A stretch of 35,465 nucleotides of DNA from a virus (lineage: Duplodnaviria; Heunggongvirae; Uroviricota; Caudoviricetes), in the IMG/VR virus record IMGVR_UViG_2534681764_000015; one strand, given 5' to 3'. This document shows positions 1 to 35,465 of the stretch, one piece after another. The number at the start of each line of letters is the position of its first letter. The stretch's first letter is position 1. The position numbers and the translations under genes are program-made. Under the pieces are notes generated by a model that was not told the origin of the DNA, ran no database searches, and saw nothing but the letters and a program-made list of their open reading frames with translations.

Positions 1-98
1 AAATTAGATACTAAATATATGTGAAGGGTGTTGAATGGGTCAACGCCTACGGGGGAGAACATCCCCCGCTAACCTTTTTCTTATTTGAGGATTTACCT

Positions 99-200
99 AT
101 GGTTGAATTTTTGATTTATCTGGCTGTAGGATTAACTATCGTATATTCACTGGCACATATTGGCATTTCTACTTTGTGTAACGCTTTCAAGTATAATTAA
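99..200 (+). CDS. small hydrophobic peptide (33 aa), hypothetical
   Basis: ATG at 99 with GAGGA 7 nt upstream; product MVEFLIYLAVGLTIVYSLAHIGISTLCNAFKYN is one predicted TM helix; below ORF-track size cutoff. Confidence 0.3.
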   Translation: MVEFLIYLAVGLTIVYSLAHIGISTLCNAFKYN

Positions 201-253
201 TTAAATCGATGAATTGAACTATAGATGATGGTCGTTTTCAAAGAGGATTATCT

Positions 254-427
254 ATGGATCTTTTTGTCTACTTTGCTACTCTGCTGTTTTTGACTATCGT
301 CGCTGGCATTAAATTGATTTTTATATCGCTGGTGGTGTTTTTCAAATTTCTAATCGGTACGCCTTACGGCTGGGTATGCTTCTTTTTGTTTATTCTTTTT
401 AGTTGCTGTAAAAAGGATACTAAATAA
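254..427 (+). CDS. small membrane protein (57 aa), hypothetical
   Basis: ATG at 254 preceded by AAGAGGA; product MDLFVYFATLLFLTIVAGIKLIFISLVVFFKFLIGTPYGWVCFFLFILFSCCKKDTK strongly hydrophobic; preferred over antisense ORF 350..556. Confidence 0.4.
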   Translation: MDLFVYFATLLFLTIVAGIKLIFISLVVFFKFLIGTPYGWVCFFLFILFSCCKKDTK

Positions 428-584
428 TAGTGTAATCTGCCTTTTCTCCTTATGGTTATTAACAGGGGATCTTCTTTGAGGATTCCCGATTAAAAGCCAT
501 AAAACACACTCCAGTACAGTGTTTTCATAGTCAGGATCTATACAACATAAAAACATAACAAGTATAGATTGAGTATTAATCCTC

Positions 585-610
585 CCGCCTCGAAAGAGGC
601 GGTTATTTTT
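585..610 (+). terminator. rho-independent terminator candidate
   Basis: hairpin CCGCCTC-GAAA-GAGGCGG followed by TTATTTTT. Confidence 0.5.
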
Positions 611-687
611 CTGGCTTTAAAGAATAATGTAGCATTATGTTCATTATAACCTCATCTTTGTTGTGCAAACCTAACCTAAACTTACTA

Positions 688-711
688 GGGACTCTTCGGA
701 GTCCCTTTTTT
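688..711 (+). terminator. rho-independent terminator candidate
   Basis: perfect hairpin GGGACTC-TTCG-GAGTCCC followed by TTTTTT; abuts stop codon of minus-strand gene 710..1654. Confidence 0.55.
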
Positions 712-1654
712 ATTGGCAGTAAGAAAAGTTAGTACCGTACATTTCATCATGAAGCATTGCAACATTGCGTTTCTGTTCTTCTTCCTCGTCTACCGCATCA
801 CTAGAAAAATGAGATTTGCCCTTAAAAGAACGAAGCAATTGCAGTGCAGCCATCGGATCACGCATCACATCGATTTTCACTTCTACTTCATCATTTGCGG
901 CCTCATCAGCCGCATTTTCAACTACTGCCACCGGAGCAACTTCTTTAGCTTTCAGTTCTTCAATCTCAGCTTTCTGTGCTTCGATGATCTGGTCTTTTTC
1001 TTCCAGCGCAGCTTTCAGTTCTGCGATCTGTGCTTCCAGTGCAGAGAAACGATCTTCAACAGCAACCGGAGAAACAGCATTAACCTGTGCTTCCAGTTCT
1101 ACGAAAGCGTCGCAAGATTCAATACGTGCTTTTTCTTCACCTTCATATGCAACCAGTTCTACTACTTCTTTCTCAGTAGTGTGGCTGTTAAAGAATACAG
1201 CAAAGTAAGGATTGCCGGATTTGGTGAAGTTCAGTTTAGCTTTTCCGGTAACTTCTTTACGACGACCAAAGGTAATGTTGCAATCAGCGGTATCCTGAAA
1301 ATCCATGTTAGGAGCGGAAACGATAGCAGTATCACCAGCAATCACTAGGTGGAACAGTTCAGAAGAGTTCTTAACGGTGAAAGTAACGATGTGGTCTACT
1401 GCAACGTCTTTAGCAGGTTTAACGCGGTCGATTGCTTTACGAATGCCGTTAGGCAGTTTACCGTCAACACCAAAGCCAGCCGCGATCAGTGCTTCACGAT
1501 GTGCTTTAAAGCCAGCGAAAGCGGATTTCTGCTGCGCAAAGGAAACATGAGCAACAACTTTCGGCTGAATCTTCTTGTTTGCTTCGGTGCCAAATTTGAT
1601 AACTGCTTTAGCGTTGGTTACTTCGTTAGTGAAAAAGTTAGCGGAAAATAACAT
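710..1654 (-). CDS. hypothetical protein with central coiled coil and acidic C-terminal tail (314 aa)
   Basis: long ORF with AGGAG 8 nt upstream of ATG; heptad-like segment ALEAQIAELKAALEEKDQIIEAQKAEIEELKAK; function not recognised. Confidence 0.6.
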   Translation of the reverse strand: MLFSANFFTNEVTNAKAVIKFGTEANKKIQPKVVAHVSFAQQKSAFAGFKAHREALIAAGFGVDGKLPNGIRKAIDRVKPAKDVAVDHIVTFTVKNSSELFHLVIAGDTAIVSAPNMDFQDTADCNITFGRRKEVTGKAKLNFTKSGNPYFAVFFNSHTTEKEVVELVAYEGEEKARIESCDAFVELEAQVNAVSPVAVEDRFSALEAQIAELKAALEEKDQIIEAQKAEIEELKAKEVAPVAVVENAADEAANDEVEVKIDVMRDPMAALQLLRSFKGKSHFSSDAVDEEEEQKRNVAMLHDEMYGTNFSYCQ

Positions 1655-1696
1655 TATAAATACTCCTGTAGAAAGTTAGTTTTAATTGTTCATTTC

Positions 1697-1740
1697 AAGC
1701 CTCCTTTGCTGCAACAAGGGAGGCTTTTTCTTTTTTTAAA
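1697..1740 (+). terminator. rho-independent terminator candidate (plus-strand polarity)
   Basis: hairpin AAGCCTCC...GGAGGCTT with extended stem followed by TTTTTCTTTTTTT. Confidence 0.5.
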
Positions 1741-1769
1741 GCCATCATATAATTCTCAGTGAAAGTGGA

Positions 1770-1949
1770 TTAACAAACTTGAACGTTAATCTTTACCTGA
1801 ATTTCGTATTTCTTCATTAGCTTGTAGAATCCGCTTCTATCAATTCCTTCCTTCTTAAAGAAGTTTTCCCCGCCTCGCTCAGTGTCGCTGTAAAAGCGTT
1901 TAGCAATATCAACAATCATTTCACGAGTGAACTTAACAGGTCTAGCCAT
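1770..1949 (-). CDS. small putative DNA-binding protein, GRP/ARP-motif family (59 aa)
   Basis: ATG at 1949 with GAGGAA 9 nt upstream (ORF track starts at GTG 1964); N-terminal ARPVKFTREMIVDIAKRFY and C-terminal GFYKLMKKYEI motifs shared with 5376..5609. Confidence 0.5.
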   Translation of the reverse strand: MARPVKFTREMIVDIAKRFYSDTERGGENFFKKEGIDRSGFYKLMKKYEIQVKINVQVC

Positions 1950-2048
1950 CAGTCGATTCCTCACATGTGGATTAATAATTTCTTAAAAAAGAGCATTTCG
2001 CTCTGAACACTTGTATTTATAAAATGATTTTCAGAAAACCCTGTAAAA

Positions 2049-2070
2049 CCACTGTATATCCGATCAGTGG
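2049..2070. promoter_or_regulatory. 22-bp palindrome CCACTGTATATCCGATCAGTGG, SOS-box-like operator candidate
   Basis: CTGT-N8-TCAG core, one mismatch from LexA CTGT-N8-ACAG; perfect 6-bp dyad arms. Confidence 0.4.
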
Positions 2071-2133
2071 GAGCACGAATTGCTAAAGAGAAGATTAATT
2101 ATTAATCAATTCGTACAATATTCAACCGAAAAA

Positions 2134-2155
2134 GCACTGTATATCTAACCAGTGC
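2134..2155. promoter_or_regulatory. 22-bp palindrome GCACTGTATATCTAACCAGTGC, second SOS-box-like operator candidate
   Basis: shares ACTGTATATC with first box; outer arm base changed compensatorily so dyad symmetry is kept. Confidence 0.4.
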
Positions 2156-2306
2156 TGTATGAATTAGCAGTGAATCAGGAGATTTTCAGAAGTGAACAAT
2201 CATTTCACACATGTATTTATAACGTGGAAATTCTTGCTTATCATCTATATGGGGACTGTTTAGAAAATTTCAACCCCCACCAGTGAGAAAAAGTATAAAA
2301 TAATCC

Positions 2307-2320
2307 TTGACAGTTGTCAA
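2307..2320. promoter_or_regulatory. palindrome TTGACAGTTGTCAA (operator or -35 candidate)
   Basis: perfect inverted repeat of TTGACA hexamer; related palindrome at 3829..3848. Confidence 0.3.
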
Positions 2321-2516
2321 TACACTTGACCTAAGCGAGAAATGACTATCAAAATTTTTGTTTGAAAATGGTAGATCAGGATTATCAACCTTTATAACCT
2401 ATTATAGCACGGAGACCTTTTGACAATTCTTTTTAAATCATTAACTTACGCCACTTTTTGGTGATTTTTTGATTAAATAATATACAAGAATTTTCTATCA
2501 AAATATTTGATGGGAA

Positions 2517-2711
2517 TTGCCCCTGAAATTCTGAATTTTGCCCCCGAACCAAAATACCCAAGATTCCACTATCCCATTTTTGCCCCTGAAACCCACTATT
2601 TTTGCCCCTGAAATTCTGGGAAACAGTGATTTTGCCCCTCATTTTTGCCCCTGAAATGCCAATAATTGCCCCTGAAAATCTAATTTTTGCCCCTGAAATT
2701 TGCCCCCGAAA
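2517..2711 (+). repeat. array of nine direct iterons, consensus TTTTGCCCCTGAAA
   Basis: copies starting 2517, 2538, 2580, 2602, 2632, 2645, 2666, 2687, 2700; spacings mostly 21 bp multiples; no ORF. Confidence 0.7.
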
Positions 2712-2844
2712 AGGATTGGTAAGAAAAACTCTTTATAAAACATTAACTTAGTGAGGGGTAAAACGGGGAATCGGGCGTGCATAGATATTATATAACACAT
2801 TCGCTACGCTCATGTGTAAAACCAAAAATAACCAAAAAGATATT

Positions 2845-2864
2845 AGGAGGGCTTTGCCCGACTG
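2845..2864 (+). repeat. left copy of 20-bp direct repeat AGGAGGGCTTTGCCCGACTG
   Basis: 19/20 identical to copy at 3238..3257. Confidence 0.6.
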
Positions 2865-2974
2865 CGCGTAGCGCTAACCAATTACTTCTAGTAACAACTA
2901 ATTTAAACTAGATGATACTAGATGGTCTTAGAAGGAATTAACTAGTTTGCTCGCTCGCTTCGCTCACTCTCAAA

Positions 2975-2997
2975 CGTCTGCGACGCCACTGCGTGGC
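2975..2997. promoter_or_regulatory. GC-rich twin palindrome CGTCTGCGACG / GCCACTGCGTGGC
   Basis: two abutting perfect palindromes in an otherwise AT-rich non-coding region; candidate protein-recognition or cleavage site. Confidence 0.3.
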
Positions 2998-3237
2998 ATC
3001 GAGAATCACTTTTGAAAGGATTTTCTTAGAAAGGGATTTTAATACTAGATGATAACTGATTCTAGTAAACGAACGAAGTGAGTAACAATCACTTTCTAGA
3101 AAGGTATTGGTTATCCCTTCGGGATCGCAACCTGCGGTTGCTGAAATTGCTTCCTGATTATTCTTTCTTCGAAAGAAAGATTCTTATATTCTAAAGATAC
3201 TTCTTCGTTTTGATGATGATTTAATCAAAATCTATGA

Positions 3238-3257
3238 AGGAGGGCTATGCCCGACTG
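3238..3257 (+). repeat. right copy of 20-bp direct repeat AGGAGGGCTATGCCCGACTG
   Basis: 19/20 identical to copy at 2845..2864; lies about 90 bp upstream of gene 3348. Confidence 0.6.
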
Positions 3258-3347
3258 AATACCAATCCCTTCCAAATAGATAAAAAATTCTCGTTATAAA
3301 TACTAGTGTAATTTGTTTGATTCACTTTCTTTTAGAGGATTTCCACT

Positions 3348-3806
3348 ATGAACCACAAGATGACTACCACTACTCCTTTTATCCTTCTGGGTCTGGATTC
3401 TGATAGCTTCCACAATGACAAGTTAATGAAGATGTTCCGTGAACGTGGTTATAACATCCTTTTCAACTCTGATGAATCCCATTTCTCTAGTGCATGGTAT
3501 GCGTTTTGCCGTAATAAGAAGCCGACCATTGTTGTTAACGTCTTCACCGATGAAGAACGCTTAAAGTACCAGAATCTACCAGCAATTATTGTTCGTGATG
3601 ATCTGCCGTTTCAAGTCCGTTCCGGTGACATTGACCTGGGTAGCTTCTTGACTCTTCGTGAACTGGATGAAGCAATGTTTAATTACGGTAAAGAAACCGC
3701 TCAGGAAGCCCCAGAACAAGATGAGGAAGACGAAGACTACGCACCAATCGCTTTCTCTTCTCACGGTGGCTTCTACGGTTACGATGAAGGCTTAGATATG
3801 CTGTAA
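3348..3806 (+). CDS. hypothetical early protein with acidic C-terminal tail (152 aa)
   Basis: ORF with AGAGGA RBS; C-terminal EAPEQDEEDEDYAPIAF; first gene after the 1.4-kb non-coding region. Confidence 0.6.
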   Translation: MNHKMTTTTPFILLGLDSDSFHNDKLMKMFRERGYNILFNSDESHFSSAWYAFCRNKKPTIVVNVFTDEERLKYQNLPAIIVRDDLPFQVRSGDIDLGSFLTLRELDEAMFNYGKETAQEAPEQDEEDEDYAPIAFSSHGGFYGYDEGLDML

Positions 3807-3841
3807 GTTAGGTCAACCCTTTGGCGTCTTGTCAAGGGGTA

Positions 3842-3870
3842 TTGACAAAAATTTCTGACTTTTTTATGAT
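3842..3870 (+). promoter_or_regulatory. sigma70-type promoter TTGACA-N17-TATGAT
   Basis: consensus -35 at 3842-3847, 17-bp spacer, near-consensus -10 at 3865-3870, about 57 bp upstream of ATG 3927; -35 is the right half of inverted repeat 3829..3848. Confidence 0.55.
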
Positions 3871-3926
3871 TATCGCACTTGACAACTTTGAACCTATTTG
3901 ACCTAGATTTGTAAAGAGGATGTAAC

Positions 3927-4259
3927 ATGAAAGAATTTACCATCACTAAATCCCTGTATGACTGGACTGTTAAAATCTCCGGCAAAACCGTTTCTGTAAC
4001 CCCTAGCCATGTAGAAAATGATTGGGGTGTATCCCGTGAAACTATCTCCCGTAGTATGCATGTTCCGTTTGATCTGATGACCTTAACTGGTATTCATGCA
4101 ATGCTGGAAGTTCGCGAGCAATTCGAAGCTGGTAATCACAATGCGACTCCAGTTAACAATCACCTTCTTACTAATGAAGAACGTGAAATCATCGAAAATT
4201 GGCGTTATGAATATGCGATTCCTTATTATGAAGAAGACCAAGTAGAAATCGATTGGTAA
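3927..4259 (+). CDS. hypothetical protein (110 aa)
   Basis: ORF downstream of strong promoter with AAGAGGA RBS. Confidence 0.6.
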   Translation: MKEFTITKSLYDWTVKISGKTVSVTPSHVENDWGVSRETISRSMHVPFDLMTLTGIHAMLEVREQFEAGNHNATPVNNHLLTNEEREIIENWRYEYAIPYYEEDQVEIDW

Positions 4260-4348
4260 TAAATTTCTATCATAAATAAAATTGTTCCGGTTGAGATGCC
4301 GGAACTAGGAGGACCAAATCACTAAACCGTTTAAGGGGAATTTTTACT

Positions 4349-5182
4349 ATGAATACTGTTACTACTATGAATACTGCTGTTAAAACTGCTTCCGTGTCTC
4401 TGGTTGTTGATAACACCAAACCACTGACCATGTCTTCTCGTCAGATCGCTGAATTTACCGGAAAAGAACACCACAAAGTTAAAGTTGATATAACTAAGAT
4501 GTTGAATGCTCTAGGTTATGAAGATCACGCGAAGTTTCGCGTCATCTATTTTGACCAATACGGACGCGAACAAAACGAATATCAACTAGACGAAGAAATG
4601 ACTCTGACTCTTGTCACTGGTTACGATGTTAAGCGTCGAATGGTTGTTATTCAGGAATGGAAACGACTGAAAGAAGAAAATGAAAAACTGCGTTCTCAGC
4701 AAGTCAACCCATACGCAAACATGACTAAGCTCGATTGGATTCGTGAGGCAATGGAATTAGAAGCCGCAAACGAACAACTGATTCAAGAAAAAGAACAATT
4801 AGTTGATCTTCATATCCGTAAAGCTATTGATGCACACAGTCTTAGCCGCTTATTAGGCGAAAAACGAGGCTCTACGAAGGTACAAATGATTCTGAAAGGT
4901 TTATGTGCTGCTGGTGTTCTTGAGCGTCGTCTGGATGCTTCTGGTAAGCCTAAAGGCTATGATCTGCTTCCTCCTGGCTATATGTTCGCTCGTATGTCGG
5001 CACACGGTCAGATCGAGTTCACTGCTGATGCTATCCCGCATCTCGTAAAACTCGGATTGCTTGAAGAAGAAAAGGCCGCAACTTTGAAATTGCCACAGCC
5101 GAATAACTCACGAGCAATCATTAATAACACTGCTTTGCTGATTCGTCAGAATGCTGGCTCTCTGGAAGTCTTCGGACTGTAA
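4349..5182 (+). CDS. Rha-family phage regulatory protein / antirepressor-like (277 aa)
   Basis: N-terminal LTMSSRQIAEFTGKEHHKVKVDITKMLNAL...YFDQYGREQNEYQLDEEMTLTLVTGYD matches the Phage_pRha signature as recalled; coiled-coil middle. Confidence 0.65.
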   Translation: MNTVTTMNTAVKTASVSLVVDNTKPLTMSSRQIAEFTGKEHHKVKVDITKMLNALGYEDHAKFRVIYFDQYGREQNEYQLDEEMTLTLVTGYDVKRRMVVIQEWKRLKEENEKLRSQQVNPYANMTKLDWIREAMELEAANEQLIQEKEQLVDLHIRKAIDAHSLSRLLGEKRGSTKVQMILKGLCAAGVLERRLDASGKPKGYDLLPPGYMFARMSAHGQIEFTADAIPHLVKLGLLEEEKAATLKLPQPNNSRAIINNTALLIRQNAGSLEVFGL

Positions 5183-5375: not shown

Positions 5376-5609
5376 TCAAAAACCTGTTGCTTCTACGATC
5401 TGACCATCACCGATCTGAACATAGAATTTAATGTCCAACTTCTTCATATTCTTATAGAATTGGGCGATTGAGATCCCATGTTCACTAAGAATCTGTTCTT
5501 TCGCTTCCTTACCACGATCCGCTGTATAATAAGCGTAGGCAATATCAGCCATCTGTTCAGCGTTAAAACGGGCAGGGCGACCGCGAGTAGCTTTAGTAGT
5601 CATAGTCAT
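5376..5609 (-). CDS. small putative DNA-binding protein, GRP-motif family (77 aa)
   Basis: ATG at 5609 with GGAGA upstream (track start 5636 is GTG); TRGRPARFNAEQMADIAYAYY and FYKNMKKLDI motifs paralogous to 1770..1949. Confidence 0.5.
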   Translation of the reverse strand: MTMTTKATRGRPARFNAEQMADIAYAYYTADRGKEAKEQILSEHGISIAQFYKNMKKLDIKFYVQIGDGQIVEATGF

Positions 5610-5638
5610 TTTCTCCAAATTAAAGTGAATGTTCACCT

Positions 5639-6244
5639 TTATTTAGAGGACTTACATTTTATCGGAAAAAGTTCTCCATCGTCAACCGACATAAAGAACT
5701 CTGCCTTAATCCCGTACTTCTTCAACCGTGAATAATATGTACCCCGACTAATATCAACCTTGCGCAGCACTTCGAAGAACTCTTTAGGATTCCTGTAATA
5801 GTGGCTATATCGCACGTTAGCGAGTTCTACAAACAATTCCCTTGAATCACCATAGCCTTTCTTAAAAGCCACATTACGATAGCGTGTAATGGCATGATTC
5901 AATCTCTTCTGTTTAAGCACTTCCCTAATCGGTGTCCACTGCAACCGATAGATAGGACCGTCATCTACTCGATAGAATCGCTTAATGTCAAAATCAAACC
6001 ATTCACGAACTCTATTAAACTCTGTCTGTGATGTACGATGCTTCTTAAAGAAGTTATGAATATCGGTATACCCATGATCGCGATACAACTCGATTAAAAT
6101 CTGTTTAGCTTCCTCACGACTAAAGCCAGATGTTGTGTAATCAGTCTTCTTGTGATGGTGCTTAACTGGCAAACGATATTCATGATCGGTACAACAAGAA
6201 AAGGCTAATTCTAATGCATCTCTTTGTTGCTGATTAATTAGCAT
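5639..6244 (-). CDS. hypothetical protein with C-terminal HTH-like motif (201 aa)
   Basis: ORF divergent from terminase; C-terminal ISRGTYYSRLKKYGI resembles the C-terminal motif of the two small GRP-family proteins. Confidence 0.55.
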   Translation of the reverse strand: MLINQQQRDALELAFSCCTDHEYRLPVKHHHKKTDYTTSGFSREEAKQILIELYRDHGYTDIHNFFKKHRTSQTEFNRVREWFDFDIKRFYRVDDGPIYRLQWTPIREVLKQKRLNHAITRYRNVAFKKGYGDSRELFVELANVRYSHYYRNPKEFFEVLRKVDISRGTYYSRLKKYGIKAEFFMSVDDGELFPIKCKSSK

Positions 6245-14187: not shown

Positions 14188-17100
14188 ATGCAATCAATCC
14201 AATTTAAACGAACTAATGTTTCTGGCAAAAAGCCAACGCCGGAACAATTACAGGTCGGTGAGGTAGCAATCAACCTTAAAGACCATGTTATTTTTACCAA
14301 AGACCGAGATCATGAAGTAGTTCAAATCTCTGTTTCTCCTGAAACTCACGCGGCACTAGAATCTAAAGTTGATGCTAACAAACAAGAATTGGATAGCACA
14401 ATTGCAGTAAATGACCGCAATATTCACGCTAAAGTAGATGAAATTAAACAAACTACTGATGCAACCATCGCAGCAAATCACGCAGAAATTAACAATAAAG
14501 TTGATGTAATTAAACGCGAAACCGACGCGACAATCGAGGCCAATAAAAATAAAGCTGCTTCCGATCTTGCTGGTGTTAAAGCTGAATTGTCGGATACCAT
14601 CAACGCTAATAAAAATGCGGCTGCTGTAGCAACTCAGGAACTGGACACCCGCATCAATAAAAAAGTTGATGATATTAAATCCCGTACCGATGCAACCATC
14701 GTAAGCAATCACAAAGCAATCAATGACAAAGTTGATTTGATTAAGGCAGAAACTGACCGCACTATCGCAGCAAATCACGCCTATGCGGAAAATCAGTTAA
14801 CTGACACCTACAATAACCTTACTGGTGTGATTGCAGCCAATAAGCAAGAGGCAGCGGATAACGTCGCAGCATTAACCCGTGATGTTGAAGCCAAAAATAC
14901 AGCAATTCATAGCAAAGTTGACAATAACAAGTCTTACACTGATTCTGAATTGGCACGCTTAGAAAGCCGTATTGATGCAGCCGATGGATCAAGTGATGGT
15001 AAGTACATCAAAAAGCACGTAAACACTTGCACTGATGGCTATTTGCTGTCTAAGACCGCAAACCCTTTTGATGATCCGAGTGCTCTTAATCTTGATTACT
15101 TTGGTGCATTTCGCATGAATGACCTGGCGGGTCATATTGCAATGATCTTGCATGTTCCGCACCCATCCGGCGTTAATCATGCTCGTGGTTTTGAGTTCAC
15201 TTATGGGTCTAATCCGGTTCCTACGGTAAGAACATACGGCTATGATGAATTGGGACATTTGGCATATTCTCACCGCATGTATCATGAAGGTGATAAACCT
15301 ACTCCGGCTGAAATTGGCGCATATTCGAAAGCAGAAATTGACCGACTGTTCCAGAAGACGCTTAATTTTGGTATCGAGGGTGGTTGGTTTAAACTAGGCA
15401 CTTTGACAATGCCACAACAACACGGTCGCACGGCTAAGATCCGTTTGGTTGGTGGTAACGGTTATAACGTCGGGATGAATGGACAAGCCAATATTATCGA
15501 ATTGGTGATCCGATGCGGCAACAATAGCCCGAAAGGTGTTGTATTCAATGCGTATTATACTATTTGGCATCATGAACAACATTTTTGCGCTATTCCAACC
15601 GATGGCGACAATTACGATCTTTACGCTTACTACGGTGCACATACAGGATTTGTTTTAGCAGAATATCAAGTTTCTTCCGGTGGTGTTTCTTTAAACCTGT
15701 TGGATACTCCTGAATATCTGGGTGGTGAAAAACCTGTTGCAGACGAAATTTTTGATGCTCTTAACATTTCATCGTTCAATAACTTTAGCAACCGTGGAAC
15801 GTTAAATTTTGCTGGAAACCATCAAGGCCAATACGACATTGAGCATTTGAACGAACAGCAAACAAATGCCAAGAAAATGTTGCGTCGCTTCCGTAGTTCT
15901 GCTCCTGCCACTATCTGGCATGAGACAGTTGATGATAACGCATATCGTCTTGCTACTGGATACGAAGATACAAATCAGGAATTATTGCTGACAGTAACAT
16001 CCGGGTTACATGTCAAGAAATTAACATTGGATGGTGGTGTTGGTGGAAATTCTGGTATTGATATTCGTCGAGGACCAAACGAAGCAAGCCATTTTAATTT
16101 CATGGATTATCGCACTGGACAAGATGTTCGTAATGGTTGGTTTGGTTTTGGTGATGGAACAACCAAAGATTTTATTTGGTGGAACGACAACGGTCAAAAC
16201 TCTATAAACCTGATTGCAGATGGTGAATTACATATTTCTGGCGGTAAAGGCCAGAAAATTGTAATGAATAGCGAAGTTGCATTATCTGAAAATGCTCGTT
16301 TGGCTGTTAAAGGTGGCAATTATGGTTTGATTTTACGCAATGATGGTTCTAGCTTCCATATTCTTACTACCGATTTAAAAGATTCTTTTGGTAGTTGGAA
16401 TAATCGCAGACCATTCAGCTATGATTTTGCGGACGGTGGATTGTATTTAGGTGGTACTGCAACCGCTCGTTGTTTGCATCTCGGAATTGATGGTAGTACC
16501 CGTCTTGAAGACAACCTTTTCTTTAAAGCTGGTTCTCGTCAATCTATGGACTATATGGAACTCGTCCATTGGGGTGCAAGCAATACAGGTCGAAATAACG
16601 TTTTAAGTCTTCGTGACTCAAAAGGATTTTTCGCAGAATTTGAACGATTGGGTGATAATACCATTAAAAACACCTTCTTCGGGAAACTTAAAGTTAATCG
16701 TGGTTCTGACGCAATCGTCATGAATGCCGAAACGGGTGATTCGTCTATATATTTGCTGGGTACTTGTGCTGATAATAACAACTGGTATATCGGTAAAGGT
16801 GGTGCTGATAATGGATTAGCGTTCTATAGCTATGCTACTAATGCTGCTATCAATATTACAAACGCGGGTGATATCGCGCTAAGTCCAAAAGGTGTCGAAA
16901 TGACTCATGTCAATAACGTTCGATTCTATGTTCATGGTGAACGTTGGACTGCTAGCCAATCTGGAGGTTGGGGCGATCAATGGGGATTAGAAGCGCCGAT
17001 ATTTGTCGATCATGGTTATGTAGGACCAGATAGCTATTATCCAATTATTAAAGGAAGAAGTTTAATCACCAATCAAGGGTATACAACTGCCGTCGATTTT

Positions 17101-17598
17101 GGTATGCGTCGTGTTCCTCAAAATTGGGGGCAAGCTATTATTCGTGTTGGATCTGCGGAGGCATCGCCAGCGGCTGGTCATCCTCAAGCGGTGTTTGAAT
17201 TTCATCATGATGGTACTTTCTATTCTCCTGGTAATGGTAACTTTAACGATGTTTATATTCGTTCCGATGGTCGTCTGAAAATTAATGTTGAAGATTACGA
17301 AGAAAATGCGGTGGATAAGGTAAATAAACTCAAAGTTAAAACCTACGATAAAGTTAAATCTCTTAATGACCGAGAAGTTATAGGTCATGAGATTGGTATT
17401 ATCGCACAGGATTTACAAGAGGTATTACCGGAAGCTGTTAAAACCGCAAAAATTGGTGGTCTTGATAACCCAGAAGAAATTTTAACAATTTCAAACTCCG
17501 CAGTGAACGCGCTTTTAATTAAAGCGGTCCAAGAAATGAGCGAAGAAAATAAACTTCTTCGTGAACGTCTTGCTGCAATTGAAGCTAAATTAGGGTAA
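14188..17598 (+). CDS. long tail fiber with C-terminal intramolecular chaperone (peptidase S74-like) domain (1136 aa)
   Basis: N-terminal MQSIQFKRTNVSGKKPTPEQLQVGEVAINLKD fiber-anchor-like motif; 24-aa coiled-coil repeats; C-terminal SDGRLK...HEIGIIAQDLQEVLPE...LLRERLAAIEAKLG resembles the self-cleaving chaperone of T5 pb1 and endosialidases. Confidence 0.8.
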   Translation: MQSIQFKRTNVSGKKPTPEQLQVGEVAINLKDHVIFTKDRDHEVVQISVSPETHAALESKVDANKQELDSTIAVNDRNIHAKVDEIKQTTDATIAANHAEINNKVDVIKRETDATIEANKNKAASDLAGVKAELSDTINANKNAAAVATQELDTRINKKVDDIKSRTDATIVSNHKAINDKVDLIKAETDRTIAANHAYAENQLTDTYNNLTGVIAANKQEAADNVAALTRDVEAKNTAIHSKVDNNKSYTDSELARLESRIDAADGSSDGKYIKKHVNTCTDGYLLSKTANPFDDPSALNLDYFGAFRMNDLAGHIAMILHVPHPSGVNHARGFEFTYGSNPVPTVRTYGYDELGHLAYSHRMYHEGDKPTPAEIGAYSKAEIDRLFQKTLNFGIEGGWFKLGTLTMPQQHGRTAKIRLVGGNGYNVGMNGQANIIELVIRCGNNSPKGVVFNAYYTIWHHEQHFCAIPTDGDNYDLYAYYGAHTGFVLAEYQVSSGGVSLNLLDTPEYLGGEKPVADEIFDALNISSFNNFSNRGTLNFAGNHQGQYDIEHLNEQQTNAKKMLRRFRSSAPATIWHETVDDNAYRLATGYEDTNQELLLTVTSGLHVKKLTLDGGVGGNSGIDIRRGPNEASHFNFMDYRTGQDVRNGWFGFGDGTTKDFIWWNDNGQNSINLIADGELHISGGKGQKIVMNSEVALSENARLAVKGGNYGLILRNDGSSFHILTTDLKDSFGSWNNRRPFSYDFADGGLYLGGTATARCLHLGIDGSTRLEDNLFFKAGSRQSMDYMELVHWGASNTGRNNVLSLRDSKGFFAEFERLGDNTIKNTFFGKLKVNRGSDAIVMNAETGDSSIYLLGTCADNNNWYIGKGGADNGLAFYSYATNAAINITNAGDIALSPKGVEMTHVNNVRFYVHGERWTASQSGGWGDQWGLEAPIFVDHGYVGPDSYYPIIKGRSLITNQGYTTAVDFGMRRVPQNWGQAIIRVGSAEASPAAGHPQAVFEFHHDGTFYSPGNGNFNDVYIRSDGRLKINVEDYEENAVDKVNKLKVKTYDKVKSLNDREVIGHEIGIIAQDLQEVLPEAVKTAKIGGLDNPEEILTISNSAVNALLIKAVQEMSEENKLLRERLAAIEAKLG
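14356..14800 (+). repeat. in-frame tandem repeats (about 72 nt / 24 aa) inside tail fiber gene
   Basis: at least five KVDxIKxxTDATIxANHxxIN units. Confidence 0.6.
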
Positions 17599-17636
17599 TT
17601 GGAAAGCGGGGAGAAATCTCCGCTAAGGATTCTTAT

Positions 17637-17933
17637 ATGGGATATTGGGTAAGTAGTGAAATTAATACTAAAATCGATGCTTTAAAATGGCATGTATTTG
17701 ATATTCCTAACGGCTATGGTACTGCTCGTGCTGGTGTCGCTGTAATGCGTCATAATGCTGGTGGTGGGTGGTCTGATGCACATATTAACGTAGATGGTTT
17801 GACCGTTGCTCGTCGTCGTGGTGGGACCAATTGGGGATCTACTATAAATTCGTTTGTTCCTGCTGGCTGCACCGTCTCCTTTGGTTTAGGGGGTGAAGGT
17901 GGTGTTGAATATTTTAAATTCATGGAGTTTTAA
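17637..17933 (+). CDS. small Gly-rich protein, paralog A of tandem triplet (98 aa)
   Basis: shares FDIPNGY/W, Gly-rich loop and TVSFxLG...YFKF with the next two ORFs. Confidence 0.6.
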   Translation: MGYWVSSEINTKIDALKWHVFDIPNGYGTARAGVAVMRHNAGGGWSDAHINVDGLTVARRRGGTNWGSTINSFVPAGCTVSFGLGGEGGVEYFKFMEF

Positions 17934-29443: not shown

Positions 29444-30481
29444 ATGGAGATTTTATTTGCTGAATATATCAACTACACCGGATTTACAAGAAAAACGCCT
29501 CTTGACTATGAACCTATTGCCATTAAACGTTGTGATGAGTTGGGGTACATCTATAACGGTTTTGTTGTGCCGTGGAAAGGGCAACATACACCCGTTTCTA
29601 TAACCTGCAAGAAACATAGCACAACGCGAACAATTGCTTTCAAAACTCTTAAAAAACAAGGTGCGTGTCTTGAATGCTATAAAGAATCATTAAAACTTCC
29701 TAAGAAAAAGAATAGAGATAAGGAAGCTGTATTAGATAAAGCAAGCAATGTGCTGGAACGCAAAGATATGGTTTTAGTTGGATTGTTAGAAGATTATAAA
29801 GGATTAGACACAAAAGTTTCTTATAAGTGCAATTGCTGTGATACTGCATACGAAACCATAATCACTAGAATCATAAACGATGATGCTGGGTGTCGTCATT
29901 GTGGGTCAATTAAGAGAGGAATCAATAAGAGAAAACACACAGACGACGAATGGATGGATCTAATTGAGCATGAATGCAGGAACAAACGACTTGAATTAAT
30001 AGAACAACCTAAATCTCCTATATTGTCAACATCAAAAATACACATCAAATGTGAAAAAGGTCATCTTTCTGATTCTTTGGTAGTTTATGGTTTAGTGTAT
30101 GAAAACTTAGGCTGTCCATGTTGTTCTAAAAATGGTTATAACAGAAGTAAGTCGGGAGTTTTCTACGTTCAACAGGTCGGAGATTATATAAAATATGGAA
30201 TAACAAACCATCTAAACCCACAAAAGCGAGTAACTCAACAAGCTAGGGAATCAGGGTTAAAACACAAGTTATTGTGGTATATAACGTTCGGTGACGGAAA
30301 AGTTGCCAATGACCTAGAGTATTCCGTAAAACATAACATAGGAAATCACGCTGCACCAAAAGAACTAATCCCAGACGGATATACAGAAACATGTGACATA
30401 ACCAAAGAAGCGCAGATTAGAAAAATGGCAATGGATTTTTGTAAAAACTCCAACAACTATAAAATTACATATAGGGGGTAA
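29444..30481 (+). CDS. Cys-rich protein with C-terminal GIY-YIG / T5orf172-like motif, paralog 1 (345 aa)
   Basis: three CxxC-type pairs (CKKH...CLEC, CNCC...CRHCG, CEKGH...CPCC) then GVFYVQQVGDYIKYGIT...RV; homologous to 31247..32245. Confidence 0.6.
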   Translation: MEILFAEYINYTGFTRKTPLDYEPIAIKRCDELGYIYNGFVVPWKGQHTPVSITCKKHSTTRTIAFKTLKKQGACLECYKESLKLPKKKNRDKEAVLDKASNVLERKDMVLVGLLEDYKGLDTKVSYKCNCCDTAYETIITRIINDDAGCRHCGSIKRGINKRKHTDDEWMDLIEHECRNKRLELIEQPKSPILSTSKIHIKCEKGHLSDSLVVYGLVYENLGCPCCSKNGYNRSKSGVFYVQQVGDYIKYGITNHLNPQKRVTQQARESGLKHKLLWYITFGDGKVANDLEYSVKHNIGNHAAPKELIPDGYTETCDITKEAQIRKMAMDFCKNSNNYKITYRG

Positions 30482-30981: not shown

Positions 30982-31200
30982 ATGAAAGAACCTGAGATCG
31001 TCATTGAAGAAACAAAAGAAGAATCTCCAGCAGTTGAACCAGTGGTCGAAGAAGTTAAGTCAGATGTTGAAGAAGCACCGGAAGTTAAAGTAGAATCTCC
31101 GGTAGCCAACATTTTCTCGGACGAAGCAGAGCATCGTTCTCCTGCACATGACACTGATTCATTTTGCGATCTTACTGGTTTCCAAAACTACAATAATTAA
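30982..31200 (+). CDS. acidic hypothetical protein (72 aa), doubtful
   Basis: ORF track 30799..31200 spans the terminator hairpin; first ATG after it is 30982; no clear RBS. Confidence 0.2.
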   Translation: MKEPEIVIEETKEESPAVEPVVEEVKSDVEEAPEVKVESPVANIFSDEAEHRSPAHDTDSFCDLTGFQNYNN

Positions 31201-31246
31201 TTCTTATAAATAGTAGTGAATATTATTTTATTGAGGATTCACTACT

Positions 31247-32245
31247 ATGAATACTACTTTAGCAAAGGATATCGAATTTACCGCAAAAAGCAAACGTGCG
31301 ACCCCTCCGGTCGAATATGAAACCAGAATCATTAAAGTTTGTCAAGTGCATGGATGGTTATACAGTGGTTTTGTGCTTCCTGTAAAGAAACCATTCCAGA
31401 ACACCAAAGTTTGCATAGAAGTTAACGGAAAGGTTAAAACGCCATGTATTAGTCATGTTCTAACTGGTCAGTTTACTGGCAAAGATAGAGTATCACCGCC
31501 TAAGAAGGAGTTTAGATTTACCGAAGAAGAACACTTAGAAAACGCTCGCAAGTTCTACAAGCCGATAGGGTGGGATGTGTTAGGTCTGGCTGAACCTTAT
31601 CAGGGTGTTGACACTAAACTAATTCTTCGTTGTAAGTGCCACGGAAAGATTCACAAGAAAGGTGATTTACACAATAACCGCAGACAAGGCGGGTTAACAT
31701 GCCCTTTGGTTAGGGGGGTACTTAAATCAATTCAGAATGGTAGAAAACAGGTTATCAGAAACAAGTTTGCACAGCGCCCTATGCACTTTTATCTAATTCG
31801 TGTTGGCGAGAAGTTTTTCAAATATGGAATTACCACTCGCAAAGATCCGATGCAACGGGTAAGAGAACACCAGAAGCACACCAGCGAGAAAATCACCTTT
31901 GAATGCTCACATTTGTTTAACATTGGATGGAAAGCTGGTGATTTAGAAATGGGGATTAAAAAGAATATTCAGGGCAAGAAAATCCCACGTAAGGTAATGA
32001 ATAGCGGATTCACAGAAACGCTACCGATTAGCAAGCTGAAAGATGTTAAATCATTCATCAATGAATACATCCACACCAACCCATCTAAGCCAATGTATTT
32101 TGATGATACCAACGCAATCAATCTGAACAACTACATTAGTGATGAAGACATAGAACGAGATTTATCGCAGTGGATGAATGCACCGTTAGCTGATTTAACA
32201 CCGGAAGACTTAGAACTCGATTTAAGCCCTTTAGAGGCTCTTTAA
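31247..32245 (+). CDS. GIY-YIG / T5orf172-like motif protein, paralog 2, Cys-depleted (332 aa)
   Basis: aligns with 29444..30481 at EYETRIIKVC...GFVLP, YQGVDTK, FYLIRVGEKFFKYGIT...QRV, GFTET. Confidence 0.6.
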   Translation: MNTTLAKDIEFTAKSKRATPPVEYETRIIKVCQVHGWLYSGFVLPVKKPFQNTKVCIEVNGKVKTPCISHVLTGQFTGKDRVSPPKKEFRFTEEEHLENARKFYKPIGWDVLGLAEPYQGVDTKLILRCKCHGKIHKKGDLHNNRRQGGLTCPLVRGVLKSIQNGRKQVIRNKFAQRPMHFYLIRVGEKFFKYGITTRKDPMQRVREHQKHTSEKITFECSHLFNIGWKAGDLEMGIKKNIQGKKIPRKVMNSGFTETLPISKLKDVKSFINEYIHTNPSKPMYFDDTNAINLNNYISDEDIERDLSQWMNAPLADLTPEDLELDLSPLEAL

Positions 32246-32257
32246 TACAATTAAATT

Positions 32258-32290
32258 AAAAAGGGGTACGGATGTACCCCTTAACTGTTT
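32258..32290. terminator. bidirectional terminator between convergent genes
   Basis: hairpin AGGGGTAC-GGAT-GTACCCCT flanked by A-run upstream and T-rich downstream. Confidence 0.6.
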
Positions 32291-32318
32291 TAGCTCGTTA
32301 TACGTCGATTTAGGCCGC

Positions 32319-33998
32319 TTAAATTCCAAATTCCTGTAATGGACCTGGTATTTCCTCTTCTGGTTTCCAGTTCTTATCTGTCAGCATGTCTAAACATGGA
32401 TGCAAAACAAGCCCGTTACTCTCCAGAATCTGCCTATCATTGATAGTTTTCAAATCAATGAATATCCGGCCTTTCCTCGTTCCTCTTGAATTTTCTATTA
32501 CAACTCTCTGGGTCTTTCCATCGATGTATTCCAGCACAAACAAGTTTTTATTTCTGTCAATCCTGCTACACCCGATCCGCTTTAGAGCTTGCTTAATCTT
32601 AAACCGGACCTTTAGTCGTTCCTCGTTATAAACATCTTCTAAATCAAATTCTGCGAGCTTCTCCCAGCCTTGAGAGTCCACAGAATACATTTCCTCTTCT
32701 GCCATCTTGATCTGATTGTAGAGTGTTTCACGCTCGCTATTGAGGGTAGTAATCTGATCGGCTAGCTCCTTCGTTGCTCCTGTCATAGCAGAAAGGGCAA
32801 TCAGGTTATCAATCTTGCGTGATATTTCATCAACCTGTACTTTCAACGCCGGAACCGGATTAGCCTTGTCCTCAGCAATCCAGATTTTATCAGCCAGCAA
32901 TTGCAATACAGCTTTCTCTAATTGATCACCTCGAAAACTCCAGTTTGGATGCTCGCAATCAAGTCTACGTGAACGGGTCGCATCACATGTATAACGATAC
33001 TGGTCAGAACGTTTGTTCGTTCCCTTCACTTTAACCATAGCGCAACCGCAATGATCACATTTCAATAGGCCAATACCACTAAGCAGGGGGATCGGTTTAA
33101 CTTCTTCCTTGTCTCCAAAGTTCCATGCTCTAGCACCAATATTTTTCTTAAGGTGATAGAACGTAGCATCATCAATAACACGAGGGTAATAATCCTTTAA
33201 CTCATAGTTAACACCATCTACAGAGACTTCCTTGATACCAATCAAAGCGCGGGTATGGAACAACCTTTCAACCATTGCCCGTGACCATTTTGAATGCTTC
33301 TTATTACTAACCGCTGGTGGCGGTGTATATGTCTCGTTAAGGTGATCCAGTATTTCGGCGGTTGAACGTCCATTCTTCCGTAATTCCACAATCTCCTGAA
33401 CAACAGGGAAGTATGTAGGATGAGGCAACACATAACCGGAAGTGGTATCCGTCCACCACATATTCTTTCCAACTTCCTCGATTGCCACTGCCGGATTCTG
33501 GGGATTTTCTTGATGGGCTTTAATCTTAATCAGTGCGCTTGAGTTAGTACGATTGCGCTTAGTCTGGCTTTCCTCATTACCACGGATGAATAAAAGGATG
33601 GAGAACATCAGGTCCATCGGGTTAGCGGTAACAGTATCCAGCGAGTAGATCTTGTTATCCATGCCAGTAACAATGGTTATCCCCCTACGGATGATTGAAA
33701 GGAATAACTCCTGCGCACTGACAATATCGGCACGGGATAAGCGGTCCAAGTTTTCAATGAATAGCCAGCTACCAACAGGAACGGATCTACCAATTGCATC
33801 AAGGAAACGAGATAGCGCCCCTGTTTTGGAGTTAGCACCCTTAAACGCAGATACACCCAGATCCTGATAATCATTTACCAGTTCAAGGTCATACTTTGCC
33901 GCAACCTCTCTCGCCATCCTGATTTGTCGTTCATAACTCGAACCATCATTCTGACGCATAGACGAGAAGCGAATATACGAATACAGTTTAGTTTTCAT
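32319..33998 (-). CDS. large serine recombinase (integrase-type) (about 559 aa)
   Basis: N-terminal LYSYIRFSSMRQ catalytic-Ser motif of the resolvase/invertase domain, Cys cluster CDHCGC...C...C (zinc ribbon), C-terminal coiled coil; ORF track extends to TTG at 34013. Confidence 0.85.
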   Translation of the reverse strand: MKTKLYSYIRFSSMRQNDGSSYERQIRMAREVAAKYDLELVNDYQDLGVSAFKGANSKTGALSRFLDAIGRSVPVGSWLFIENLDRLSRADIVSAQELFLSIIRRGITIVTGMDNKIYSLDTVTANPMDLMFSILLFIRGNEESQTKRNRTNSSALIKIKAHQENPQNPAVAIEEVGKNMWWTDTTSGYVLPHPTYFPVVQEIVELRKNGRSTAEILDHLNETYTPPPAVSNKKHSKWSRAMVERLFHTRALIGIKEVSVDGVNYELKDYYPRVIDDATFYHLKKNIGARAWNFGDKEEVKPIPLLSGIGLLKCDHCGCAMVKVKGTNKRSDQYRYTCDATRSRRLDCEHPNWSFRGDQLEKAVLQLLADKIWIAEDKANPVPALKVQVDEISRKIDNLIALSAMTGATKELADQITTLNSERETLYNQIKMAEEEMYSVDSQGWEKLAEFDLEDVYNEERLKVRFKIKQALKRIGCSRIDRNKNLFVLEYIDGKTQRVVIENSRGTRKGRIFIDLKTINDRQILESNGLVLHPCLDMLTDKNWKPEEEIPGPLQEFGI

Positions 33999-34010
33999 AC
34001 CATTTCCAAA

Positions 34011-34047
34011 CAAAAACGCCCCTACCGCGTATTATAACGATAGGGGC
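34011..34047 (-). terminator. rho-independent terminator candidate for gene 34062..34481
   Basis: minus-strand hairpin GCCCCTA...TAGGGGC followed by GTTTTTG. Confidence 0.45.
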
Positions 34048-34061
34048 TAGGTGATTAAAGA

Positions 34062-34481
34062 TTAAAGAATTTCACGGCAGCTAATCAGGGAATAAGACGT
34101 ATCACCTTTTTTAACATCAAATATAGGAGAACCATCAATAGAATGCAGATATTTGATGTAGGCTTTACCATCTTCGGAACCATAATATTCTTCTTTCTCG
34201 TTCTTATCTTCTTTCAATTTAGGGCTTTTGATTGTCTTATCATATACCGGATCGTTGAAAGCAAATTGACTATTATCATCATTCACTCGAACCTTTACAC
34301 CGATAAAACCACGGTATTTGCCAGACGGCGCATGATAATAACGGTCGCCATCACTCAGGTAGCGTGTATCATCTCCTTTATATTCGAAGTAGGAATTGCA
34401 CACATAATAGGTATAGGTATTAGCATTCGCAGCACCAACCAAACCCAGAGCAAGAACAACACCCGCGATAATCTTTTTCAT
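34062..34481 (-). CDS. secreted/periplasmic hypothetical protein with signal peptide (139 aa)
   Basis: N-terminal MKKIIAGVVLALGLVGAANA signal peptide; two Cys (possible disulfide); AGAGGAAA RBS. Confidence 0.55.
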   Translation of the reverse strand: MKKIIAGVVLALGLVGAANANTYTYYVCNSYFEYKGDDTRYLSDGDRYYHAPSGKYRGFIGVKVRVNDDNSQFAFNDPVYDKTIKSPKLKEDKNEKEEYYGSEDGKAYIKYLHSIDGSPIFDVKKGDTSYSLISCREIL

Positions 34482-34793
34482 AGTAGAATTTCCTCTTGTT
34501 ATTTGAATTACGATATATTTATATCGTTAAAAGTTGATGCTAATTACCAGACCAAACACAACCGCACCAATCAAATCAATCCAGTTAATACACAATCCGC
34601 TATATTCTTTCTTGAATGTCTTGGATGAAATGCCATCATGAAATTGTTTCATTGCTCACCCCATACTAACGACAAGACAAGAAAGACTAATCATAGTTGT
34701 GAGACTACCTCCCACGAATGAGATAAAAGCTAACATGTTTGATTCTCCAGTTTAAAAAGCGGTGGGAATTGCACCCACCAAATTAGAAATTAA

Positions 34794-35180
34794 TTAAGCG
34801 CGAACGATGGTCAGAGTATCCAGCAAACCTTTTTCGTATAATTCGAAACACGTTTTATATTGCTCAATCTGGAAACCATAGCGGGTGATCTTATTCAGTA
34901 GGACAATCGCGCTATTCTCATCTAGGTATTGTCCTTGCTGTCCAATGACATAAGTCTCGCGGGATAGTTTCAGCTTACGGAAACCTTTAACACCTAATTC
35001 CTTAGCAACCGCTTTAATCTCTTTAATCTCACCCTCAGCCGCAACATATTCAGCGTCGATAATCTCAGGTGATGATCTCAGTGCTACCAGAACTAAGGCC
35101 ATTGCTTCTTCTTCTGTACGCGCAACACCAGCTTTCTCGAAAGTCATCTCACCAAATTTACGAATCATGATATTGAACAT
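34794..35180 (-). CDS. hypothetical protein (128 aa)
   Basis: ORF only. Confidence 0.5.
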   Translation of the reverse strand: MFNIMIRKFGEMTFEKAGVARTEEEAMALVLVALRSSPEIIDAEYVAAEGEIKEIKAVAKELGVKGFRKLKLSRETYVIGQQGQYLDENSAIVLLNKITRYGFQIEQYKTCFELYEKGLLDTLTIVRA

Positions 35181-35192
35181 TGTTTTGCTGCC

Positions 35193-35465
35193 TTACTTCT
35201 TGCTGATAAACTCTTTAGCGATAAAGTTGATTACTTCTTTCAGCTTCTTGTCTGTATCGATGCACGCCGGTAATTCTTCTTTAATCTCCTGCGGCAGATA
35301 CACATTGCCTTTAAAGTGGAGGAAACCATCATTACCAATCATGTAGGAGAACATCCATTCACAATCGTTATCCGCTTCCCAGAACGCTACGGTCTCATCG
35401 CCAATCAAGGTAATGTCCATGTTGCGACGTGCTGCGTAGTTGATGATTGCTTTACCGATGTTCAT
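35193..35465 (-). CDS. hypothetical protein, start at or beyond window edge (90+ aa)
   Basis: ORF reaches the last base of the window. Confidence 0.4.
   Translation of the reverse strand: MNIGKAIINYAARRNMDITLIGDETVAFWEADNDCEWMFSYMIGNDGFLHFKGNVYLPQEIKEELPACIDTDKKLKEVINFIAKEFISKK

Follow-up and report, generated by a model that had tools for sequence, protein, structure and literature searches.

The minus-strand gene at 32319..33998 of virus record IMGVR_UViG_2534681764_000015 (Caudoviricetes), whose whole stretch of 35,465 nucleotides (nt) was analysed here and is called the window, encodes a large serine recombinase. With a probability of about 0.88, this protein is the intact large serine integrase of a temperate, siphovirus-like Escherichia coli prophage of about 36 kb that inserts into the host gene ycdX through a 2-bp AA crossover. 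An earlier note, made from the letters of the window, had suggested a temperate lifestyle or a prophage and had proposed that bacterial genomes be searched for integrated copies so that attachment (att) sites could be defined from their junctions. Both proposals are borne out. About 60 complete E. coli genomes carry the element within their chromosome, ycdX halves flank it, and the search of bacterial genomes defined the ycdX site. The family numbers about 1,000 or more cluster members, and every database copy of the integrase encountered is annotated only as 'recombinase family protein'; the integrase, the host target ycdX and the att sequences of a real temperate prophage are now defined.

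Insertion of the prophage into ycdX

Of 5,426 complete E. coli genomes, 60 have a chromosomal copy of window region 31200-35465 with 92-99% identity, and no plasmid carries one. A plasmid or phage-plasmid origin was considered and rejected because all E. coli matches are chromosomal and the plasmid matches are distant, with an identity of 42% at most. In PEC41, the element lies between a ycdX pseudogene 'missing N-terminus' on its right and another 'missing C-terminus' on its left, which are about 36.5 kb apart, and the ycdX halves of GN4741 flank the element in the same way. The exact protein of the window, 559 amino acids (aa) in length, is on record in 130 assembly blocks, and all ten genomic contexts shown for the identical protein adjoin ycdY-ycdZ-csgG. 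The ycdX junction is present in at least 12 complete genomes, and two further genomes have it with variant phage ends. The right end of the window coincides with the start codon of the last prophage gene, which encodes a protein of 90 aa, and nearly all of the 28 IMG/VR proviruses with this recombinase are trimmed at gene ends in the same manner. Judging from these ends, the window is a gene-trimmed provirus. The gene for the small terminase subunit (PHROG 57) lies directly to the left of window position 1. Across the whole prophage, RefSeq annotates no tyrosine integrase, and the sole 'integrase core' gene is an insertion sequence (IS)-type rve/helix-turn-helix (HTH) transposase gene in PEC41, which is absent from the window.

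The att sites were obtained by aligning both PEC41 junctions with ycdX of E. coli K-12. The bacterial site attB in ycdX reads ...ATAATAAGCCATCCCGGA-AA-TCCCAAATATGAAATAG... (in a shorter form, ...ATCCCGGA-AA-TCCCAAATATG...). The PEC41 attL reads ...AAGCCATCCCGGA-AA-CCCGAACGTAGTCAACCCC... and its attR reads ...GTGGGTACATGATATTAGGG-AA-TCCCAAATATG.... attL matches attB up to ...CCCGGAAA and attR matches attB from AATCCC..., AA alone being common to them. The crossover is confined to this AA by mismatches on either side, and there is no target duplication. A 2-bp crossover without duplication is a signature of serine integrases. The AA core corresponds to nt 400-401 of ycdX, in codon 134, and lysogens encode a YcdX protein of 140 aa as against the normal 245 aa. 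In the ten contexts mentioned above, attR reads GTACATGATATTAGGG-AA-TCC[C/G]AAATATGA, with one copy carrying a single base change in the P arm (AGGC).

The reconstructed phage site attP, ...GTGGGTACATGATATTAGGG-AA-CCCGAACGTAGTCAACCCC..., is about 52 bp long, and its junction form is GTACATGATATTAGGG-AA-CCCGAACGTAGTC. It is an imperfect inverted repeat that extends about 25 bp to either side of the core with the half-site consensus CCCnAAnnTnnTnnACCCnnAATAA, and its two arms agree at 16-17 of 25 positions, compared with a shuffle mean of 7.6 (P <= 0.0002). The earlier note had found no attP near the gene, and this is confirmed: no attP-like sequence is present within the window when up to 3 mismatches are allowed, because both att arms lie beyond the window ends. 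The P arm begins just beyond the right end, the AA core of the PEC41 attR being 43-44 bp past 35465. The P' arm lies about 0.9-1.3 kb to the left of window position 1, with the attL core about 0.9 kb (GN4741) or about 1.2 kb (PEC41) to the left of that position. In the circular form, the small-terminase gene diverges from the minus-strand genes that lead to the integrase gene, and attP lies in the gap of about 0.4 kb between them. Integration therefore parts these minus-strand genes from whatever precedes them in the phage form. A 14-mer, CCCTCGTGTTATTG, at 33173-33186 in the integrase gene of the ycdX-type alleles only is the same as the distal part of the P arm; this identity is probably due to chance.

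These observations fit a scheme of the following kind. After infection, the circular phage genome would present attP, and integrase dimers would bind attP and the site within ycdX. Staggered cuts of 2 bp would then be made at the central AA (ycdX nt 400-401), followed by subunit rotation and religation. The ycdX gene would be split into two halves flanking the prophage without target duplication, leaving 140 of the 245 residues of YcdX. The target would be chosen through the recombinase and zinc-ribbon domains, and sister phages with a swapped block of residues 196-351 would enter another host gene, hicB. Excision, for which a directionality factor encoded by the phage is expected to be needed, would exactly restore the host gene (...CCCGGA-AA-TCCCAAAT...).

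Domain architecture and gene boundaries of the integrase

All the features checked place the window protein in the large serine recombinase / serine integrase family. The open reading frame (ORF) at 32319..34013 on the minus strand encodes 564 aa from TTG 34013 or 559 aa from ATG 33998. In the 564-aa numbering, it has three Pfam matches that all exceed their gathering cut-offs: Resolvase (PF00239) at residues 11-158 (E 9.6e-15, 55 bits with a cut-off of 23), Recombinase (PF07508) at residues 203-292 (E 4e-9, 37 bits with a cut-off of 21) and Zn_ribbon_recom (PF13408) at residues 315-373 (E 2.4e-10, 41 bits with a cut-off of 25). The protein also matches PHROG 95 'integrase' at 1e-63. In a family alignment of 39 sequences with 27-89% identity, R10, Q16, S50, D85, R86 and R89 are invariant, as are the zinc-ribbon cysteines C314, C317, C338 and C348, while D46 and the nucleophile S12 (in YSYIRFSS) show conservation of 90% or more. 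We take R10, S12, Q16, D46, S50, D85, R86 and R89 to be the equivalents of R8, S10, Q14, D36, S39, D67, R68 and R71 of gamma-delta resolvase.

The earlier description of a protein of about 560 aa with a resolvase-type catalytic N-terminus and a zinc ribbon therefore agrees with the three Pfam domains, the invariant cysteines and the catalytic set, and an inactive catalytic domain, which had been named as a possible refutation, is not what the alignment reveals, as the catalytic residues are intact. A domain search had also been proposed to separate an integrase from other large serine recombinases, and it places the protein with the integrases of PHROG 95. Two other recombinase types were rejected on score. 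The fdxN element excision recombinase XisF (NCBIfam NF041201) gives 52.3 bits against an equivalog cut-off of 375, and the SCC cassette recombinase CcrB (NCBIfam NF047343) gives 16.7 bits against an equivalog cut-off of 900.

The AlphaFold2 model of the integrase, with a mean pLDDT of 80.7, has a predicted serine-integrase fold. The coding sequence (CDS) and its parts are as follows.

32319..33998, minus strand: large serine recombinase (integrase) CDS, 559 aa from ATG 33998, stop codon included in the coordinates (ORF listing, Pfam, PHROG 95, homologue N-termini, RefSeq)
33624..33998, minus strand: catalytic (resolvase-type) domain, aa 1-125, with R10, S12, Q16, D46, S50, D85, R86 and R89 (Pfam, alignment, model)
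33507..33620, minus strand: long alpha-E helix, aa 127-164 (AlphaFold2 secondary structure)
33129..33413, minus strand: recombinase domain (RD), aa 196-290 (PF07508 and model)
32883..33065, minus strand: zinc-ribbon domain (ZD), aa 312-372 (PF13408, alignment, profile match to 4KIS)
32682..32855, minus strand: coiled-coil motif, aa 382-439, two long antiparallel helices, 382-406 and 410-439 (model)
32379..32621, minus strand: extra C-terminal alpha/beta domain, aa ~460-540, almost unchanged between alleles (model)

The coiled coil had earlier been assigned to the C-terminus. The model places it internally, with the alpha/beta domain after it. The catalytic domain has fold matches to TP901-1, Sin and gamma-delta, and the family profile matches the C-terminal domain of A118/LI integrase (4KIS, E 2.4e-11), PhiC31, TP901-1 and the 500-aa entry 9iu2 in the PDB; the profile alignment to 4KIS spans profile positions 260-478, and 9iu2 is Bxb1 according to the fold search. 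A single-sequence PDB search yields one weak match only. Foldseek ranks full-length serine integrase-att complexes (PhiC31, Bxb1 and LI among them) highest in the PDB. Judged by sequence identity, however, the window integrase is far from every characterised family member, with 13-17% identity to these solved structures and about 32% identity to its nearest phage homologues.

The start codon, ATG 33998 or TTG 34013, had been called unresolved. Both codons are available to the ORF, and ATG 33998 now appears the likelier start. On the minus strand, the stop codon of a 139-aa gene is followed by the hairpin GCCCCTA...TAGGGGC with an 11-bp stem, then by TTTTTGTTT, GGAAATGGT and ATG. TTG 34013 sits within the T-tract of this terminator-like hairpin. 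Gene calls in the family start 2-5 residues ahead of the conserved LYSY[IV]R[FW]SS, as MKTKLYSY or MTKLYSY, and the RefSeq length of the integrase is 559 aa in PEC41, GN4741 and PE15. The position of TTG, the N-termini of the homologues and the RefSeq length together favour ATG 33998 as the better start. The flanking intergenic regions are short and mostly occupied by terminators, as had been noted before, with one hairpin on each side of the gene.

34018..34047, minus strand: hairpin resembling an intrinsic terminator, with an 11-bp stem followed by TTTTTGTTT, located after the 139-aa gene and before the integrase start; TATAAT is present in its loop
32261..32282, both strands: bidirectional terminator-like hairpin just 3' of the integrase stop codon, common to a convergent 332-aa gene

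Insertion-site choice and alternative explanations

Sister prophages occupy the antitoxin gene hicB, beside ydcR, in PE15, 266917_2 and 14EC029, and further hicB sisters are found in four metagenome or assembly contigs and three IMG/VR proviruses. The hicB junction is present in at least 22 complete genomes. The hicB attB reads ...GCGAATTGGC-AA-ACCTAAACAGGAGATT..., attL reads ...GAATTGGC-AA-CCCGAATGTAGTCAACCCA... and attR reads ...GTACATGATATT[A/T]GG[G/C]-AA-ACCTAAAC.... The crossover is likewise bounded to AA, at hicB nt 304-305 in codon 102, and the ycdX and hicB crossovers are both at codon positions 1-2 in a G-(N/K)-P-K-x-E-I coding context. Relatives in Salmonella, which are 71-76% identical, insert in ycdX too. 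A relative in Escherichia fergusonii (73% identical) is in codB, at an approximate position near nt 361.

Some hicB lysogens have features of their own. PE15 (NZ_CP041628.1) carries the composite transposon ISApl1-mcr-1.1-pap2-ISApl1, which confers colistin resistance, at the left end of its prophage (positions 1-3914 of locus L007). The prophage of 14EC029 (NZ_CP024141.1, positions 4106-4260 of locus L033) truncates HicB, and the adjacent toxin gene hicA is annotated as frameshifted; this frameshift may compensate for the damage to the antitoxin. The hicA gene of the 266917_2 lysogen is intact.

Comparison of three ycdX alleles with five hicB alleles of the integrase identifies 29 positions that segregate fully between the two types, and nearly all of them fall in a single block.

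32946..33413, minus strand: putative site-specificity block, aa 196-351, which covers the recombinase domain and the zinc ribbon's first half and contains 28 of the 29 segregating residues

Residues 1-175 are the same in the ycdX alleles and in the hicB alleles P0004 and P0014, and the coiled-coil and C-terminal domains of the hicB alleles of 92-94% identity are near-identical to those of the window protein. When 25 IMG/VR copies are scored at the 29 positions, they form discrete types, with 28-29 positions in one state and 0-1 in the other, or 0 and 28-29. One IMG/VR copy, which is divergent and 73% identical to the window protein, is outside both types. Allele and site are concordant in 12 ycdX and 8 hicB cases and discordant in none (20 of 20, the cases being phylogenetically non-independent). 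Between the ycdX alleles and the hicB alleles of 92-94% identity, the block shows 86% nt identity, a synonymous divergence (dS) of 0.38 and a ratio of nonsynonymous to synonymous divergence (dN/dS) of about 0.25, whereas the flanking segments show 95-98% nt identity, dS of 0.06-0.19 and dN/dS of 0-0.09. These differences between the block and its flanks indicate that the block would be a diverged module swapped by recombination under purifying selection rather than the product of in-place mutation.

In our judgement, this naturally retargeted allele pair is the most interesting aspect of the integrase. The odds are about even that the ycdX and hicB enzymes are a matched pair that differs systematically only in a recombinase/zinc-ribbon block of 156 residues, which carries 28 substitutions and was exchanged through recombination. 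Should this block be causal, it would provide a compact, natural and modular retargeting of attB with attP recognition intact, and the determinants that read attB and attP would be separable. It is also conceivable, but in our estimate unlikely, that the protein is an integrase in which the swap of residues 196-351 is not the cause of the site difference. Either enzyme could use both sites, or attP differences or host factors could decide between them, and the correlation would then reflect the shared ancestry of two prophage lineages. In favour of this reading, the attP sites of the ycdX and hicB phage types are identical at 50-51 of 56 positions (about 90%), the right arms of the two attB sites agree at 11 of 20 positions (P = 0.008), and a GGN-AA-NCC core is common to all E. 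coli attP and attB sites compared. The non-independence of the 20 concordant cases and the linkage of the block flanks within lineages point the same way. However, the segregating residues, 28 of 29, lie exactly in the recombinase and zinc-ribbon domains, and in large serine recombinases these two domains make sequence-specific contacts, as in LI integrase-attP structures such as 4KIS. PE15 has a different catalytic block (dS 1.1) and yet keeps the hicB block and the hicB site. The Salmonella enzymes that target ycdX lean towards the ycdX state, which they have at 12-14 of the 29 positions, with the hicB state at 2-4. Neither a discordant pattern nor a double lysogen with both sites filled is found among the 12 ycdX-positive and 22 hicB-positive genomes.

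The assignment of the protein as the integrase of the element has two further competitors. One is that it is an accessory serine recombinase, like YbcK in lambdoid phages, or an invertase/resolvase, and that the prophage enters ycdX by another route. The closest coliphage homologues, at about 32% identity, are indeed YbcK-like, PHROG 125 'DNA invertase' is a weak secondary match, and attP is not adjacent to the gene. However, the element has no other integrase gene, and its junctions have only 2 bp in common, as in serine-integrase recombination; tyrosine-integrase sites typically have longer identical cores. The DNA-binding block covaries with the insertion site, and no invertible segment flanked by inverted repeats is seen near the gene. 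A YbcK-type lambdoid accessory recombinase was rejected as a candidate on its identity of only about 32% and on the annotation of the prophage, which has no second integrase, and an accessory role is considered extremely improbable. The other is that the prophage is a cryptic, immobile remnant with a recombinase that no longer acts. It would account for the finding of neither an excised form nor a cultured relative, for the lack of recognisable genes for replication or a CI-type repressor in the leftmost 6 kb of the window, and for the IS or transposon insertions in some copies. This is quite improbable, because the identical protein recurs in 130 assembly blocks, the integrase gene is under purifying selection (dN/dS <=0.28 in every segment) and the element has full sets of packaging, head, tail and lysis genes. 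In addition, ycdX or hicB is occupied by the same phage type in unrelated host strains that come from pig, human, chicken and frog, which requires repeated integration, and the recent exchange of a 97%-identical tail-fibre tip with a T4-like phage suggests an active phage.

An intact integrase that directs this prophage into ycdX thus remains the preferred reading. Several points weigh against it. A distance of about 1.5 kb, occupied by three small genes, separates attP from the integrase gene. The ycdX site would apply to the window copy through the identity of its protein with that of the flanked copies, the att arms being outside the window, and the activity of the integrase is one that we infer from sequence and population distribution. 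Exact and degenerate patterns of the attP junction gave no match in collections of viral and metagenome contigs, no directionality factor candidate was identified in the element, and INPHARED contains no cultured phage related by DNA. Finally, the near-identity of the two attP types despite the differing DNA-binding block is a puzzle that a simple model in which the block determines the site does not explain, since the same domains read both attP and attB in the serine-integrase family.

Other features of the element and relation to known systems

The integrase gene is separated from attR by three small genes.

34062..34481, minus strand: 139-aa gene in a variable cargo slot, where other copies have 81-aa and 113-aa genes
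34794..35180, minus strand: 128-aa gene, PHROG 14908 (unknown function), kept between the integrase gene and attR
35193..35465, minus strand: 90-aa gene, PHROG 6147, last prophage gene; the window stops at its ATG

By our own reading, the 139-aa product appears to begin with a signal-peptide-like sequence. In related Salmonella and E. fergusonii prophages (L026-L029), a UvsW-like helicase gene adjoins the integrase gene, and the Salmonella relatives additionally carry a UvsY-like gene; the window has neither.

The packaging and tail genes are lambda-like, with a gpA-type terminase and a GpJ-type tail tip, and the terminase is 43% identical to its best phage match. The earlier note had regarded a lytic-phage-like tail and lysis layout as unexpected beside an integrase. 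The layout is instead lambda-like, as is usual in temperate siphoviruses, and only the distal tail-fibre segment is T4-like. This region, 15784-17904, shares 96.8% identity with the region for the distal subunit of the long tail fibre in KFS-EC, a lytic T4-like phage, and this likeness indicates that an adhesin was exchanged recently between temperate and virulent phages. The Rha-like regulator reported before is found at 4349-5182. The SOS-box-like sites reported with it amount to a single CTGT-N8-ACAG at 1185-1200, which is not above chance. Three minus-strand genes at 1770-1964, 5376-5636 and 5639-6244 encode proteins with a similar C-terminal HTH-like motif (...FYKLMKKYEI, ...FYKNMKKLDI and ...YYSRLKKYGI, respectively) and no family match; by our own reading of the translations, they may be regulators of the element.

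A 21-bp tandem repeat (TTGCCCCTGAAATGCCAATAA, 2.6 copies) at 2645-2711 overlaps a 13-bp repeat inside the gene-poor segment 1965-3347. It resembles iterons or operators; no gene for replication is recognised in the element. Two paralogous PHROG 681 'endonuclease'/CapR-like genes at 29444-30481 and 31247-32245 bracket the M15 endolysin region; their presence varies among otherwise syntenic copies, which suggests that they are free-standing mobile endonuclease genes. The PEC41 copy has an IS5 in its tail region (L001 9661-10641), and its IS-type transposase gene is located between the Rha-like gene and a 201-aa gene (L002 5394-6440). A 512-bp contig of an Actinacidiphila cocklensis assembly (JANCAF010000145.1) is 99% identical to the E. 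coli prophage integrase and is almost certainly contamination; a protein scan of the genome contigs gave nothing beyond this contig.

We found no paper that names ycdX or hicB as the attB of a serine integrase, and an earlier computational listing, such as that in the recombinase catalogue of Durrant et al., is possible. No paper was found that cites the RefSeq accessions of these lysogens. A paper on LF82 and another on ycdX of Salmonella Enteritidis were considered and do not bear on a serine-integrase prophage in ycdX or hicB. For work in enterobacteria, E. coli serine-integrase prophages with defined sites would be useful orthogonal integration tools. The ycdX/hicB allele pair and its relatives in Salmonella (ycdX) and E. 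fergusonii (codB) make a small natural series for attB choice. For the host, the likely effect of lysogeny is the shortening of YcdX to 140 of 245 aa, and in the sister phages it is the likely loss of the C-terminal part of the antitoxin HicB, in which we read an HTH-like sequence.

Among known systems, the integrase of Listeria phage A118 (LI integrase, 4KIS) has the same order of the catalytic domain, alpha-E, the recombinase domain and a zinc ribbon with an inserted coiled coil, and both the family profile match to its C-terminal domain and the fold match support the likeness. A118-type phages insert within the host gene comK through a 2-bp crossover without duplication. In contrast to A118/LI integrase, to which its identity is about 14%, the window protein comes from a phage of a Gram-negative host, uses other att sequences and continues beyond the coiled coil with an additional alpha/beta domain of about 100 aa. 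The PhiC31 and Bxb1 integrases (cryo-electron microscopy structures 9rah and 9iu2) are similar over the full-length fold (Foldseek E 1e-15 to 1e-16), and the same mechanism is predicted. However, these enzymes, at the 13-17% identity given above, are from actinobacterial phages. Directionality factors are known for both of them.

The nearest phage relatives are the YbcK-like recombinases of DLP12, 4A7 and Perceval and those of the Burkholderia phages Bcep22, Bcep176 and JC1, with 28-32% identity over more than 80% of the length. They are too distant to be orthologues. Lambdoid phages with YbcK-like genes integrate by a tyrosine integrase, whereas the window enzyme is the sole integrase of its element and its sites are defined. 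Another comparison is offered by SprA of SPbeta, a large serine integrase whose prophage interrupts spsM and restores the gene by precise excision, a behaviour termed 'active lysogeny'. The present prophage likewise splits a host ORF, and its precise excision would restore the gene. However, there is no sign here of an excision regulated by development or physiology, and the target genes ycdX, hicB and codB are unrelated.

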